From the sequence record OZ413489.1: 64,000 nt of DNA; one strand, given 5' to 3'. Source of the DNA: a phage. Shown here one piece after another: positions 8,645-63,580 of the stretch (positions are counted from its first letter, which is position 1; every line of letters begins with the position of its first letter). Position numbers and translations under genes: made by a program. The notes beneath the pieces are model-generated. The model worked only from the letters and a program-made list of their open reading frames with translations, did no database searches and was not told the origin of the DNA.

Positions 8645-8890
8645 ATGAACAAAGGGTGGACATTTGTAGACGGCGTTAAAAACATGCCTCTAGGAAAGTA
8701 TATTGTAGCCATGGCTGATGAGGATGGCAATGTGGATTTCGGAGCTTGCGAGGTTGTTCTTGCAGGATCTGGTAACTATGTGGACAAAACCGGGATAATT
8801 AACGGTCAGTTCTACTTTGATCACAACCCTGTTGTAGCGTATATGGCTATGCCAGAGTTTAAGTTCCCAAAGGATGGTGCTGATGTTTAA
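8645..8890 (+). CDS. hypothetical protein
   Basis: 81-aa ORF, RBS gcaggaga. Confidence 0.55.
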   Translation: MNKGWTFVDGVKNMPLGKYIVAMADEDGNVDFGACEVVLAGSGNYVDKTGIINGQFYFDHNPVVAYMAMPEFKFPKDGADV

Positions 8891-17946: not shown

Positions 17947-18210
17947 ATGAAACGTCTTGATCAGCTCAAATTAGTTCAATATATGGCTTATCGTGTTCTT
18001 GAAGTCCAGAAAGGTAGCAAAAAAGAGGTTTGCGAGAAAGCTTATAAGATCTTCACTCGCAAAAAAGATGACTGGATGCTACGCCAGACTAAAAAGGCTG
18101 ACATCTTGGGGTACCTGGAAGAAGAGATCCGCCTTGAAGAGCAAGAAGAGATCCGCCGTAGTGAGGCAGATTATCAGGCAGCTTGGGAAAACTGGATGAG
18201 CAACAAATAA
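17947..18210 (+). CDS. hypothetical protein
   Basis: 87-aa ORF, RBS aagaggtaaa. Confidence 0.6.
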   Translation: MKRLDQLKLVQYMAYRVLEVQKGSKKEVCEKAYKIFTRKKDDWMLRQTKKADILGYLEEEIRLEEQEEIRRSEADYQAAWENWMSNK

Positions 18211-18228: not shown

Positions 18229-18256
18229 CAGGGGCTTAAAGCCCCTTTCTTTTTGT
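18229..18256 (+). terminator. intrinsic terminator closing the + strand block
   Basis: aggggc-ttaaa-gcccct followed by ttctttttg. Confidence 0.65.
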
Positions 18257-18859
18257 CTCCTCTTTTCCTACCACAAATGGCCCCGCCTGGCAAATGGAAT
18301 AATCAACAAGCCAGCAATTAACCCCACTGTACAAACATACATATAAAATAACTATTGCATAATTTTTCATTGTGTGGTAGCAGTGCCATTTTTACACGTT
18401 TTTCCTTCCAAAATTGCACGTAATGCAGCATTTGCACAAAATTTAACCTGATGCATATCTTCAATAGCTTGTCAACAACTAAAAATCTTTATAAGTCATA
18501 CACTTACATAACTACAAAAACGTTTTCTACGTGAAAAATCGAGTATAACTATAGCCGCCAGATCTCAGAATTTACGTACGCTCGCCATTCTATAGCCTGC
18601 TAAGCATTTATTCCAACCATAGAATAACGGAATAGTCAATACCTGCATAAAATAATTATTCGTGTAAACTGCATAACATAAATCGGCCCAGGTGTCAACA
18701 TTTTTCGTAAACAGTCTGGAATTGTCACGTTAGGTTACCATAAGCAGAGAAATCTTTAGTCGTCTAATGTTTACTGTACATTACTATACTGACTGGAATC
18801 ATTAGATGACTAAGAGAAAGATAAGAAATAATTAATAATGTAATTATTTTACCTGTAAC

Positions 18860-19125
18860 AATAAGGCAACTATGCAAACGAATGGCATGGCGCGACGGAG
18901 TCGCGACATAATATAAAAGCAGTAACCATCACCCCCGTGATAGTTTGTCTGCAAACTATTAATCAGATCATAGTTGCCTTGTATTTAGTTAATCATGACA
19001 TGACAAGCAAGGCAACTATAGATCTGCTAATAGTTGCCCTGCTTTTATATTATGTCATGCTAATTATAATCAGTGCGATTATTGTCATGTATAATTATTG
19101 TCATGCAAACGAATGGCATGGCTGA
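18860..19125. repeat. array of aaggcaactat motifs in both orientations plus duplicated gcaaacgaatggcatggc
   Basis: Copies near 18863, 18970 (inverted), 19009, 19031 (inverted variant); 18-mer at 18874 and 19106; cgcgac-ggag-tcgcg palindrome. Confidence 0.6.
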
Positions 19126-19132
19126 TTATCGG

Positions 19133-19230
19133 TGTGTAAACAGTCAATCATGTAAATGGTTAGCATGTGAACAATCAGGAATGTAAACAATCCAGTGTGT
19201 AAACTAATAGGTGTGTAAAAGTGTCATGTT
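19133..19230. repeat. iteron-like array of six tgtaaac-type direct repeats
   Basis: gtgtgtaaacag, atgtaaatgg, atgtgaacaa, aatgtaaacaa, gtgtgtaaact, gtgtgtaaaag at 10-20 bp spacing. Confidence 0.55.
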
Positions 19231-19364
19231 GTGTCAGTTAGGTCACATTATGTCAGACAAGTTTTTCTCCTCTTTGTCAAGTGCTGCATGAAAAATTTAC
19301 AAGCTTGTATGGTAGCATTTTTGCGGCCCTGTTTACATTCAGTAATGTATGTATAATCCTTGTT

Positions 19365-19527
19365 GTGTGGGCGTTTAGACGTCTAGACGGTTGGAAGTCC
19401 ACAGGTCAATATCTAATCTATCGGCTGCTAACTATATCCCACACATGTGTGGGCGTTTAGACGTCTAGACGGTTGGAAGTCCACAGGTCAATATCTAATC
19501 TATCGGCTGCTAACTATATCCCACACA
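19365..19527 (+). repeat. perfect tandem duplication of an 81-bp unit (82-bp period)
   Basis: Unit gtgtgggcg...tagacgtcta...cccacaca twice; 7-bp terminal inverted repeat gtgtggg/cccacac; tataat hexamer at 19351-19356. Confidence 0.8.
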
Positions 19528-19789
19528 AATAGTAAGAAATATGATTGTTATATGCGTAAACTGTAACTCATGTTATCAATCCCTGTATGGATCGCCAGTG
19601 GTGCGCATAATAGGTATTATGTTAAATTGCCCGTAATGATAACAGTTCTCACAATGATAGGTATTCTCATTCATCCACACAAAATAGGTTGCAAATGTTG
19701 TGCCACTGTGTGAACGGCCTGGCCTATTAATTTCTCTCACTGCCTCGATATTTGAGAATTGTTATAAGAATGAGAAGTATTCCCATTCC

Positions 19790-20130
19790 GTCCGCCTGGC
19801 AGCACTCCTGTAGGTCCTGCAAGGACTCTAGCTGAAAGCTAGACCCTTCGGGCCTCCCTGTAGGTCAGGTCAAAATCGTGGTAGAATTGGGCCTGTTCAG
19901 ATATTTCTGGCTGACTCTTCAGGTCTGTGTGGGAAAAGCCAACCTCTCCGGCGGGGCAGGGGGTCATGACGGGAAAATTGCAGGTCAATTAAAAAATTTA
20001 CGTGGTGTATGAAGCGCTCTTCAGGTAAGGCATGTATTATGGGATGAAACCCTCTTCAGGCAATGATATTTGTGGGTGTGATATTTGCTGGAAAGCCAGA
20101 TATGACGGGACTCCCGGCGGGGATGGGGTA
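19790..20130. repeat. GC-rich segment with recurring short motifs
   Basis: ctcttcagg x3 (plus one at 20465), ccggcgggg x2, cctgtaggtc x2, atgacggg x2. Confidence 0.55.
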
Positions 20131-20823
20131 GTACAGACAGGGAAAATATGAGAATGTAGTTGGGGAAATTGATCAGACAGGTAGAGTATGGAATATGTTA
20201 CAAGTATGTTAAATATGGAGGTTGAATATCTGTAGGATTTGTGTGTAAAATCAAAGACTTAAGGGGTGTTGTGGTATTTTCTATAAATAATTCAAGTTTA
20301 ATAGGCAATATTTGTCTCTATCCGCTTTGTGTGGTAAACAGATTCAGATTAGATTGGTTTACAAGTGTATACATAATATACAAATTAAAGATACAAGAAA
20401 CCCCCCTCCCCCTTCGGCTACCATTCACCTTTTCCTCTGACTGGTACTTAAACACTTATTCAGACTCTTCAGGTTATCACCCATATATCATATGGCAGTG
20501 ACTGGTGTCCTCCGGCCCCTCTTTCGTCACCCGTCCGCTTCGCCATGCTAATGCCATAGCCAATGGTTCGGTTGTTCACTCTGTTCACTCAGGTGTATCT
20601 CCATACCCCTTCAAACCGAAGAGAACAGAAAACCCGAATTACTCGGTAAAAGAAAAGAGAAGAACTTAATTTTATCAGGATAGGCAAGAATGTCAAGGCA
20701 TGACTGCTCACTAAACAAGCAAACAGTCATGTGTGGAAGGTAAGTGATTGTGGTGGTGGGAAATTTAGTTGAAAGATGTGTTATAGGTGCTCCCAGCACT
20801 TTAGCCGGGTAGCTAATTGTGTG

Positions 20824-21039
20824 TCAGTCCAGTGGTTCATCACCTACTTCACTGAAATCAATGTTCATGGTCTCCTCCCAACCATCAATCTCAGCACCAG
20901 AGTAGAGATCTTTAGGACTTACTCCCAAAGCATCAGCAACAGAGTCCATATTTAACACCTCTGGCAGGTATGATTCATCGAATTCAAGGTAAATCAGGCC
21001 ACGAGTGTTGTCAGCTCCACCAAATATTTCTATCTTCAT
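20824..21039 (-). CDS. hypothetical acidic protein
   Basis: Start at MKIEIF after aggag RBS; last gene of minus block. Confidence 0.5.
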   Translation of the reverse strand: MKIEIFGGADNTRGLIYLEFDESYLPEVLNMDSVADALGVSPKDLYSGAEIDGWEETMNIDFSEVGDEPLD

Positions 21040-21159
21040 GAAATCTCCTCTGGGAATGAGAGTGTGAACAGGGTTTATACGTTCCAATGCGCTGGAATTA
21101 TGCACGTTTGCCTCTTCAGGCCATGCTTCAGCATGAGGAACCTGTGTGGGCTCGGTGCT

Positions 21160-62767: not shown

Positions 62768-62842
62768 GCCCTGTTAGCTTAGTGGATAAAGCAGCGGCCT
62801 TCTAAGCCGTTGACACTGGTTCGAGTCCAGTACGGGGTGCCA
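62768..62842 (+). tRNA. tRNA-Arg (anticodon UCU)
   Basis: Cloverleaf folded by hand; loop cttctaa; TTCGAGT T-loop; encoded CCA. Confidence 0.75.
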
Positions 62843-62846
62843 AATT

Positions 62847-62933
62847 GGGGAGTTATCCCGTAGAGGTAGCGGTGTAGACTGTAAATCTATTGTCATTGCG
62901 ACTCGGGTGGTTCGACTCCACCACTCCCCACCA
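62847..62933 (+). tRNA. tRNA-Tyr (anticodon GUA), long variable arm
   Basis: Perfect acceptor ggggagt/actcccc; loop ctgtaaa; encoded CCA. Confidence 0.75.
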
Positions 62934-63047
62934 AATTTATATTTTTAGATGCATAAATAATACAGATAATGGCATTGATATTTATCGTCGTTTATACTAG
63001 TCACTAACTGCTCGAAAATCAGTGTCATTATCAGTATAATTTATAAA

Positions 63048-63138
63048 GGAGGGTAGGGAGCAATGGTGCTCAAGCGGTCTTGAAAACCGTCCCGTTGAGG
63101 ATGACTCGATGATGGTTCGATTCCATTACTCTCCGCCA
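63048..63138 (+). tRNA. tRNA-Ser (anticodon UGA), long variable arm
   Basis: Anticodon arm gcggt-cttgaaa-accgt close to E. coli tRNA-Ser(UGA); encoded CCA. Confidence 0.7.
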
Positions 63139-63236
63139 CATTGTTGACCTTGTAATTAAGCGAAAGCCGGAAGCAGAACCGGATTATCAAATGTTACAGT
63201 CGTCATCGCCGACTAGCAACATGGTCAACATGCTGA

Positions 63237-63335
63237 GCTAGGTAAGCCCTTTGGCAAGGGCGAGGATTTTTAATCCTGAAAATAGACGAGGTAGTCGTTG
63301 AATACATAGGTGGTTCGATTCCATCACCTAGCACC
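63237..63335 (+). tRNA. tRNA-like gene with aberrant anticodon arm
   Basis: Acceptor gctaggt/acctagc, D-arm and T-arm fold; anticodon region is either a 5-nt loop or a 4-bp stem with loop tttttaa; 3' end is CC then T. Confidence 0.35.
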
Positions 63336-63340
63336 TTTTT

Positions 63341-63416
63341 GCTGATGTAGCACAATCGGTAGTGCAATTGATTTGTAATCAATAGGTTGTAGGTTCAAAT
63401 CCTGCCATCAGCACCA
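63341..63416 (+). tRNA. tRNA-Thr (anticodon UGU)
   Basis: Perfect acceptor gctgatg/catcagc; loop tttgtaa; encoded CCA. Confidence 0.8.
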
Positions 63417-63417
63417 A

Positions 63418-63492
63418 GGCCCTGTAGCTGGAAGGTTCAAGCAAGCGACTCATAATCGCCAGACGGTGGTTCAATTCCACCCAGGGCCACCA
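63418..63492 (+). tRNA. tRNA-Met (anticodon CAU; could be Ile-lysidine type)
   Basis: Perfect acceptor ggccctg/cagggcc; loop ctcataa; encoded CCA. Confidence 0.75.
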
Positions 63493-63503
63493 AATAGTAA
63501 ATA

Positions 63504-63580
63504 CTCCGCGTAGCTCAGCTTGGTAGAGCGCCTGATTTGGGATCAGGAGGTCGAGTGTTCGAATCACTTCGTGGAGACCA
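63504..63580 (+). tRNA. tRNA-Pro (anticodon UGG)
   Basis: Anticodon arm cctga-tttggga-tcagg; canonical D-arm; encoded CCA. Confidence 0.75.

Follow-up and report, generated by a model that had tools for sequence, protein, structure and literature searches.

A putative cis-acting genome-end region with an orphan promoter directed at the terminal repeat of an rV5-like phage

Introduction

What does a gene-free segment of a phage genome do when no open reading frame (ORF) explains it? We address this question for positions 19790-20620 of a 64,000-nucleotide (nt) stretch of phage DNA (sequence record OZ413489.1; "the window" is this whole stretch). An earlier reading of the letters alone, hereafter the original prediction, had described these positions as one GC-rich non-coding segment with recurring short motifs and UUCG-type hairpins, and had offered either one or more structured non-coding RNAs or a recombination or packaging signal as its function. 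The window belongs to an rV5-like Vequintavirus: 2.5 kilobases (kb) around the segment match 122 phage records at 86-99% identity, nearly all of them Escherichia Vequintavirus, which are myoviruses of about 137 kb. The segment lies inside an ORF-free gap of about 2.6 kb where two large gene blocks converge, the + strand genes stopping at 18210, with a terminator behind them at 18230-18246, and the - strand genes stopping at 20824.

The rV5 genome paper represents this gap, which separates ORFs 163 and 164, by a grey "non-coding" box at the same locus as the segment; it states no function for the box and no link to a terminal repeat, and the promoter described below is absent from its table (Kropinski et al. 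2013, PMC3606486). The box has stayed unexplained since 2013, published accounts of these phages disagree on whether their genome ends are fixed or permuted, and rV5-like phages are common candidates for therapy and biocontrol.

Comparison with related genomes places the inner boundary of the direct terminal repeat (DTR) at the start of the segment, resolves the segment into modules, and points to a boundary motif and a neighbouring box that recur across genera, as well as to a highly conserved unit that runs from a predicted promoter, oriented towards the repeat, to a G-run. We see about an even chance that the segment is a cis-acting, gene-free genome-end region in which the orphan promoter transcribes about 265 nt towards the repeat, following a T7-like logic. 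Most likely the segment helps to make and package the genome ends rather than being a set of folded RNA genes. That the promoter fires, that its product is about 265 nt long and that this product has a role at the ends is what we infer from its conservation and position. Earlier publications cover the locus and the repeat; in the papers searched we found no description of the link between the two, of the conserved box or of the promoter-to-G-run unit.

Results

The segment starts at the inner boundary of a terminal repeat

The anatomy given here is drawn from 20 relatives, and alignments of the left part of the segment cover 16 genomes. Scans of IMG/VR added just two to three relatives and a metagenome scan added five; one further metagenome sequence (L029) was discarded as a chance match to GC-rich bacterial DNA.

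The record of phage Gotham annotates a 459-base pair (bp) repeat_region at both of its ends. Base 1 of the Gotham locus maps to window position 19256 and base 1 of the other copy to 19796, which delimits one copy of the DTR (Table 1), and the segment starts at the inner boundary of that copy. The copy is 541 bp long owing to a perfect 82-bp tandem duplication at 19364-19527, whose unit begins TGTGTGGG, finishes CCCACACA and contains the palindrome CGTTTAGACGTCTAGACG. The duplicated stretch is single-copy in all 20 relatives read, and the duplication is either peculiar to this genome or an artefact of the assembly.

Short terminal repeats have been reported for several related phages. The vequintaviruses EdH4 and HdK5 have "terminal redundancies of 458 bp" (Korf et al., PMC6563267), the Mydovirus KPP-1 has a 514-bp repeat with twofold read coverage that PhageTerm assigns to the T7-like type (PMC9862379), and phage Jab, of a putative new genus, has a 475-bp repeat identified by CheckV. 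The KPP-1 repeat likewise lies in a convergent ORF-free gap, and the Seunavirus PVP-SE1 has the same layout. By way of these relatives, this phage too would have fixed ends with a short direct repeat. The gap in other genera was located by the published KPP-1 repeat coordinates instead of by a gp153-like neighbour; this gp153-like "transcriptional regulator" was rejected as a synteny anchor, as it sits elsewhere in PVP-SE1, KPP-1 and PBES02.

The terminase cut, or the end of the repeat, would fall between 19796 and 19797. Read on the - strand, the repeat starts GGCGGACGG, and the PhageTerm-mapped repeat of KPP-1 starts GACGGACAG. In five Seunavirus and Mydovirus genomes the repeat starts GACGGACAG or TAGACGGACA, with TAGACGGACA common to the relatives there, and the motif GNCGGAC stands at the boundary in three genera. 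Furthermore, both boundaries of the repeat lie in homologous sequence contexts across genera. The - strand of the window corresponds to the + strand of KPP-1 and PVP-SE1, an orientation taken from a weak, colinear similarity within the repeat.

A G-run box accompanies the boundary in three genera

Block A (Table 1) is built from a unit of the form CTCTTCAGG ... GGAAA(A)GCCA ... CCGGCGGGG-NN-GGGG ... ACGGGAAAAT, of which the CCGGCGGGG-NN-GGGG part constitutes the G-run box. On the - strand, the box reads ACCCCCTGCCCCGCCGGAGAGG in the window and ACCCCCTCCCCCGCCCGGAGGG in PVP-SE1, LNA4 and GAP31, and a related form is found in KPP-1 and Ro1. It stands 75-95 bp outside the repeat boundary in Seunavirus and about 125 bp outside in its Mydovirus version; in the general form ACCCCCTSCCCCGCC(C)GGAGRG, it lies 75-150 bp outside the boundary in all three genera. 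Box and GNCGGAC motif are thus conserved elements with a fixed place relative to the predicted cut.

A 458-bp PVP-SE1 query that holds promoter, box and boundary retrieved pieces of itself from 31 records spanning six host genera, and the adjacent 458 bp of PVP-SE1 coding DNA retrieved just 12; the non-coding stretch has matches across more genera than the genes beside it. Although these genomes contain few quadruplex-prone motifs, each of the three genera has one at this place. Our preferred reading of the G-run box is a DNA signal associated with the repeat boundary. Its reading as an intrinsic terminator was dropped, as it works in PVP-SE1 only and not in Vequintavirus.

Identity across block A ranges from 0.75 to 0.96, with indels that break every ORF. 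Among 62 base pairs predicted by RNAalifold from 16 distinct sequences with many variable columns, none is supported by a compensatory change and many are broken, and the fold energy of the + strand (19785-20210) is no better than that of shuffled sequences (z = +1.54). We therefore conclude that block A is not a conserved RNA structure. No promoter comparable to that of block C was found on its + strand.

A conserved unit runs from an orphan promoter to a G-run

With a mean pairwise identity of 0.98-0.99, block C is the most conserved part of its 4-kb neighbourhood. All 118 full-length Vequintavirus matches in GenBank share at least 98% identity with it, as compared to mostly 95-99% for a 306-bp control stretch of nrdA, a core enzyme gene that block C exceeds in conservation. 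The conservation starts at a -35 hexamer and ends straight after a G5AG6 run and its T-rich tract, with edges that are sharp even in the divergent contigs L003 and L027, where the flanks have been replaced. The right-hand unit accordingly extends to 20697, beyond position 20620 at which the segment had been ended. A host origin of block C was looked for in 5,426 E. coli genomes, and no match was found.

The hexamer belongs to a sigma-70 promoter (Table 1) with a predicted transcription start near 20662 and no ORF downstream. Near-consensus sigma-70 promoters, defined by at least 11 of 12 matches, number 21 in the window as compared to 1.9 in shuffles, all co-oriented with their gene block, and 9 of the 21 have an extended -10 TG (for example those at 2348, 8033, 13871 and 36001). 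This abundance fits heavy use of the unmodified host polymerase. The promoter of block C is the sole ORF-less one found among the 21, the other 20 not having been inspected individually. In L003 both hexamers are retained and the spacer has diverged, being 2 nt longer. The orphan promoter is missing from the rV5 table because the search behind it covered only the 100 bp upstream of genes (PMC3606486). Directly upstream of the orphan -35, at 20699-20731, there is an 8-bp inverted repeat (CATGACTG ... CAGTCATG, 17-nt loop) that is conserved in relatives.

An untranslated transcript from block C is plausible, because the conserved promoter sits there; an RNA structure for it is unproven. A short hairpin early in the predicted transcript may be a 5' stem-loop or an attenuator. 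At the other end, the G5AG6 run, followed by TTTCTTG, lies 262 nt past the predicted start and varies by one base in length either way; it is a candidate 3' end or R-loop element. The sole pairing option at the 3' end is a long-range helix with the 5' end.

Promoter-like elements that point at the repeat occur in the other genera as well. PVP-SE1 has TTGACG, 17 nt and TGcTACTAT, and KPP-1 has TTGACC, 17 nt and TGcTATTCT. The element and its leader form a 75-nt island (8766-8840 of the PVP-SE1 sequence L030, 2696-2767 of the KPP-1 sequence L021) that is 78.7% identical between the two phages within DNA that is otherwise unalignable. The island stands 320-450 bp from the repeat and points at it in both, and recurs in Cronobacter, Enterobacter and other Klebsiella phages, where the flanking non-coding DNA does not align. 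A promoter outside the repeat and directed into it is therefore predicted in the window (20696-20669, - strand) and in the islands of PVP-SE1 and KPP-1.

Table 1. Features in and beside the gene-free segment, in window coordinates
Feature	Position	Strand	Basis or remark
DTR, one copy	19256-19796	none	Gotham record ends mapped onto the window
Inner-boundary sequence, ...CCGTCCGCC / TGGCAGCACTCC	19785-19808	none	invariant or nearly so in 16 genomes
Hypervariable indel module	19809-19884	none	at least 4 length or sequence variants among 16 genomes
Block A, G-rich on the + strand	19885-20200	+	two diverged copies of one unit
CTCTTCAGG copies of block A	19915, 20017, 20052	+	motif count
G-run boxes (CCGGCGGGG-NN-GGGG)	19948-19963, 20114-20128	+	motif count
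Quadruplex-prone motif	20107-20142	+ (block)	sequence pattern
AT-rich spacer	20201-20400	none	GC 0.29-0.34
Block C, ultra-conserved, no ORF	20401-20697	-	promoter and about 265 nt of predicted untranslated transcript towards the DTR
G5AG6 run on the non-template strand, then T-rich tract	20401-20413	-	downstream edge of conservation
Fourth CTCTTCAGG, inside block C	20465-20473	+	motif count
Short hairpin CCGAGUAAUUCGG, then GUUUUCUGUU	20634-20646	-	about 16-40 nt past the predicted start; invariant in all relatives
Sigma-70 promoter, TTGACA, 16-nt spacer, TGaTAAAAT (extended -10)	20669-20696	-	11/12 matches plus TG

Hairpins, motifs and composition of the segment

The hairpins that had been cited as evidence for structured RNAs do exist, at 19827-19843 (UCUAGCU-GAA-AGCUAGA) and at 19842-19854 (GACCCTTCGGGCC). 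Both are in the hypervariable module, which also has the direct repeats of CCTGTAGGTC (19807-19816 and 19857-19866); the 19785-19905 interval varies from 71 to 121 nt across the 16 genomes. The version of the module in the window, with both hairpins and the second CCTGTAGGTC, is found elsewhere only in phage Alma, that is in 2 of the 16 genomes; rV5 and YP-6 are without the 50 nt between the direct repeats, and most other genomes carry a different sequence there. Since the hairpins occur only in the window and in Alma, they are not a conserved feature, and the module seems dispensable.

A boxB-like reading of the CCUGAAGAGG hairpins, after lambda boxB, was rejected, as the motif is in the loop in some copies and in the stem in others. 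A hammerhead core read by eye (CUGAAGAG...CGAAA) was also rejected: no stem III is possible and Rfam is silent. Searches of 19790-20700 gave no covariance-model match at the gathering score or at E<=10, and none of the curated Rfam 15 families (self-cleaving ribozymes, 6S, transfer-messenger RNA (tmRNA), Y-like RNAs, group I/II introns) was found there; for transfer RNA (tRNA) and tmRNA genes, ARAGORN returned nothing for the region. Collectively, the proposal of structured non-coding RNAs finds no support in the hairpins or in block A, and is unproven for block C. The alternative put forward with it, a recombination or packaging signal, fits better, given that the segment starts exactly at the repeat boundary and that the CCGGCGGGG box is kept there in three genera.

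Next, we considered whether the segment is a single GC-rich unit. GC-richer parts are indeed present, at 19800-20150 (GC 0.45-0.54) and 20400-20600 (0.46-0.56) in a genome with a mean of about 0.43, but they are two blocks parted by AT-rich DNA (20150-20400, 0.29-0.34). Furthermore, the two blocks have opposite GC skew, +0.3 to +0.77 on the left and -0.2 to -0.5 on the right. Some relatives have other DNA in place of the right part of the spacer (20317-20400). The + strand of the spacer contains, at 20282-20289, an exact copy of the T4 late-promoter consensus, TATAAATA, which is invariant in all relatives read.

The recurring motifs are real and exceed chance. The window has eight copies of CTCTTCAGG, all on the + strand, as compared to 0.51 expected, and four of them are in the segment (19915, 20017, 20052 and 20465). 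CCGGCGGGG occurs twice (19948 and 20114; 0.10 expected), and CCTGTAGGTC has two exact copies (19807 and 19857). CTCTTCAGG, which reads CCTGAAGAG towards the repeat, is enriched both in the segment and in the PVP-SE1 gap. The word CTGAAG is also the Eco57I/AcuI site, which we regard as a coincidence. A fifth CTCTTCAGG, at 21112-21120, forms part of a small hairpin (GCC-TCTTCA-GGC) in the space that separates two - strand genes, with the ATG at 21039 about 70 nt downstream of it.

The statement that no ORF explains the segment holds. Within 19839-20501, ORFs of at least 36 amino acids are intact in at most 2 of 15 relatives, except for two overlapping ones that are intact in 8 of 15, and the two longest ORFs have no Pfam family above threshold.

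Discussion

A genome-end region with T7-like logic

Under the reading that we favour, E. coli RNA polymerase would start at about 20662 and transcribe about 265 nt leftwards, and the transcript, or the act of transcribing, would serve the formation of the genome ends. Transcription could prime or open the DNA for copying the single repeat in a concatemer, and/or could mark the site for the terminase or provide a landmark for maturation. The terminase, in turn, may recognise the box, the CTCTTCAGG repeats and the boundary, which would be the protein-recognition part of the signal beside the cut site. Such a system would follow the logic of the T7 concatemer junction, where origin, pac site and terminal repeat act together and a polymerase pause starts maturation, with the host polymerase in place of the phage one.

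In T7, packaging of a plasmid (phagemid) needs the origin, the pac site and the terminal repeat (PMC13236587), and a pause of the RNA polymerase at the concatemer junction starts maturation (PMC3276506). The locus described here shares with the T7/T3 junction a short fixed direct terminal repeat, adjoining non-coding DNA with short repeated motifs, and a promoter outside the repeat that is directed into it. It differs in belonging to a myovirus of about 137 kb without a phage RNA polymerase and with a sigma-70-type host promoter; there is no sequence similarity to T7, and the flanking gene blocks run towards the ends and not inwards.

The R-sites of lambda cosB and the pac repeats of SPP1 and P1 are terminase recognition arrays. 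Like them, the segment repeats a short motif at uneven intervals, no more than a few hundred bp from the predicted cut (four copies of CTCTTCAGG and two of the G-run box); its motif is dissimilar to those sites.

Several observations weigh against a cis-acting genome-end region. Protein-binding DNA seldom requires all bases of 300 bp to be conserved. Only one copy of the repeat is visible in the window sequence itself, and no homologue of block C was detected outside the genus. The promoter stands about 900 bp from the boundary here, as compared to 320-450 bp in the other genera. At the G-run there is no canonical terminator, as no hairpin is adjacent, and the T-tract is degraded in L027. Coding strands of these genomes often contain CCTGAAG, and the recurrence of CTCTTCAGG across genera may therefore partly be chance. 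Finally, two studies that used PhageTerm describe vequintaviruses as circularly permuted or headful-packaged, which conflicts with fixed ends (PMC8407724 and PMC13211470).

A more specific version of this mechanism, which we consider quite unlikely as it stands, is that the block C transcript is a pre-primer: the host polymerase would stall at G5AG6 and leave a persistent RNA-DNA hybrid at the AT-rich spacer, which would prime synthesis through the repeat. If true, this would solve the duplication of the single concatemer repeat and would be the myovirus analogue of the T7 right-end replication promoter; it would also amount to the use of a mitochondrial CSB2-like stop signal by a myovirus. 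Much as in CSB2 of human mitochondrial DNA (G5AG7), G5-A-G6 is on the non-template strand with T-tracts, a promoter upstream and AT-rich DNA after it (PMC5027508), so that two long non-template G-tracts followed by a T-tract are present downstream of the promoter. The polymerase here is a multisubunit bacterial enzyme and the G-tracts are two only; the resemblance is one of form.

Weighing of alternative explanations

That block C (20401-20662) is instead the gene of a stable, trans-acting structured RNA, with a role in host takeover, anti-defence or regulation and with an incidental proximity to the repeat, we consider unlikely although deserving of weight. Conservation from the -35 hexamer to just after the G-run resembles a transcription unit with a promoter of its own (11/12 matches plus TG, with hexamers kept and spacer diverged in L003), and all of its positions are conserved, as in RNA genes. 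The two variable hot spots lie in predicted loops, CCAUAU-GAU-AUAUGG (20488-89) and GUAU-GGAG-AUAC (20602), a 13-bp pairing of the 5' pyrimidine leader with the 3' purine run is possible, and all four one-sided changes preserve pairs. However, Rfam is empty at E<=10, the fold energy of the - strand (20385-20665) does not stand out from shuffles (z = -0.18), and none of 87 predicted pairs has a compensatory change; block C, with about 13 variable columns, offers too few changes for this count to be decisive, and three of its changes disrupt predicted pairs. One apparent compensatory pair, C20535T with G20566A in L003, was downgraded, as 20564-20566 is hypervariable with five variants. Complementarity to the rest of the window never exceeds 12 nt, with 11-mer matches at about twice the chance expectation, and homologues are confined to one genus. 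We regard as improbable that the region is a general replication origin, in which an RNA-DNA hybrid stabilised by the G-run beside an AT-rich unwinding element primes the leading strand, after the models of ColE1 RNA II, the T4 and T7 origins and the mitochondrial LSP/CSB2 origin, with no genome-end role. The order of the elements would suit it, with a promoter, a conserved transcript of about 260 nt, the non-template G5AG6 with its T-tract and then 200 bp at GC 0.29-0.34, as would the form of the G-run, similar to that of CSB2 (G5AG7 and T-tract), at which transcription is halted by a hybrid quadruplex and the primer arises (PMC5027508). The rV5 authors moreover noted a change of GC skew at 104425-105475, which is this same gap (PMC3606486), but that change coincides with the switch of transcription direction. 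Furthermore, there are just two G-tracts, the behaviour of E. coli RNA polymerase at such runs is conjectural, block C is absent from other genera that share the replication genes, and the right half of the AT-rich spacer is replaceable.

Two further explanations were weighed. The first, very improbable for the region as a whole, holds that it is leftover DNA, made of decayed genes or neutral spacer, whose motifs are residual codon-biased words or slippage products. The variable module does behave in this manner, its indels being bordered by direct repeats of 10 bp, coding strands are in general rich in CCTGAAG, and several annotators call short ORFs in the region. Against it, block C is more conserved than nrdA, the box and the boundary are kept across genera where neighbouring genes are not, CTCTTCAGG is present in 8 copies as compared to 0.5 expected, and the ORFs are broken in relatives; the explanation is refuted for block C and the box and is true only for the variable module. 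The other, which we find scarcely credible, places a small protein in block C, encoded by a 54-amino-acid + strand ORF (20505-20669), a 39-amino-acid - strand ORF (20469-20588) or an 18-amino-acid ORF whose AUG was picked by eye and is preceded by a GAAGGGG stretch. The two longer ORFs are intact in 14 of 15 relatives, but only because the DNA is nearly invariant: amino acid identity (mostly 90-98%, and 60-90% in a few records) is lower than nucleotide identity (98-100%), and third codon positions hold 3 of 9 and 3 of 11 variable sites, without any excess. The 54-amino-acid ORF has no Pfam match, tblastn gave no match outside the genus, and most annotators call no gene in block C; the shortest ORF has lost its AUG in L008 and gained a stop in L011. 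Block C is not protein-coding, and the small-protein explanation is rejected.

For a box that had been left as "non-coding", the analysis gives a place at the terminal repeat, and it separates a dispensable hairpin module from constrained parts, namely the box beside the predicted cut and the 300-bp unit from promoter to G-run. Together with a predicted orphan promoter aimed at the repeat in three genera, these parts are concrete, mutable targets for studies of end formation and packaging in large myoviruses with short terminal repeats. Genome engineers can likewise learn from them which non-coding DNA to keep when rebooting or minimising these phages.

Other features of the gap and the window

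Another non-coding block of very high conservation (18850-19050, identity 0.97-0.98) is found across the repeat from the segment. Four ATAGTTGCCYTG copies alternate in orientation within it (18865, 18970, 19011 and 19030), it also holds a perfect inverted repeat of 18 nt (18905-18922 / 19039-19056), and its appearance is that of an array of protein-binding sites. Repeats of TGTAAAC plus GTGTGTAAA cluster at 19128-19210, where the gap is AT-rich and lies just beyond the outer boundary of the repeat, and words of the GTAAAC type recur in the gaps of PVP-SE1 and KPP-1.

Elsewhere in the window, Rfam detects a group I intron at 243-478 (64.7 bits), and six tRNA genes are clustered at 62768-63577. 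Among the sequence records, 19 UNVERIFIED "Campylobacter phage" entries of GenBank (MG0656xx, for example L008 and L012) are ordinary Vequintavirus with 87-97% identity to the window, and are probably mislabelled or contaminant phages.

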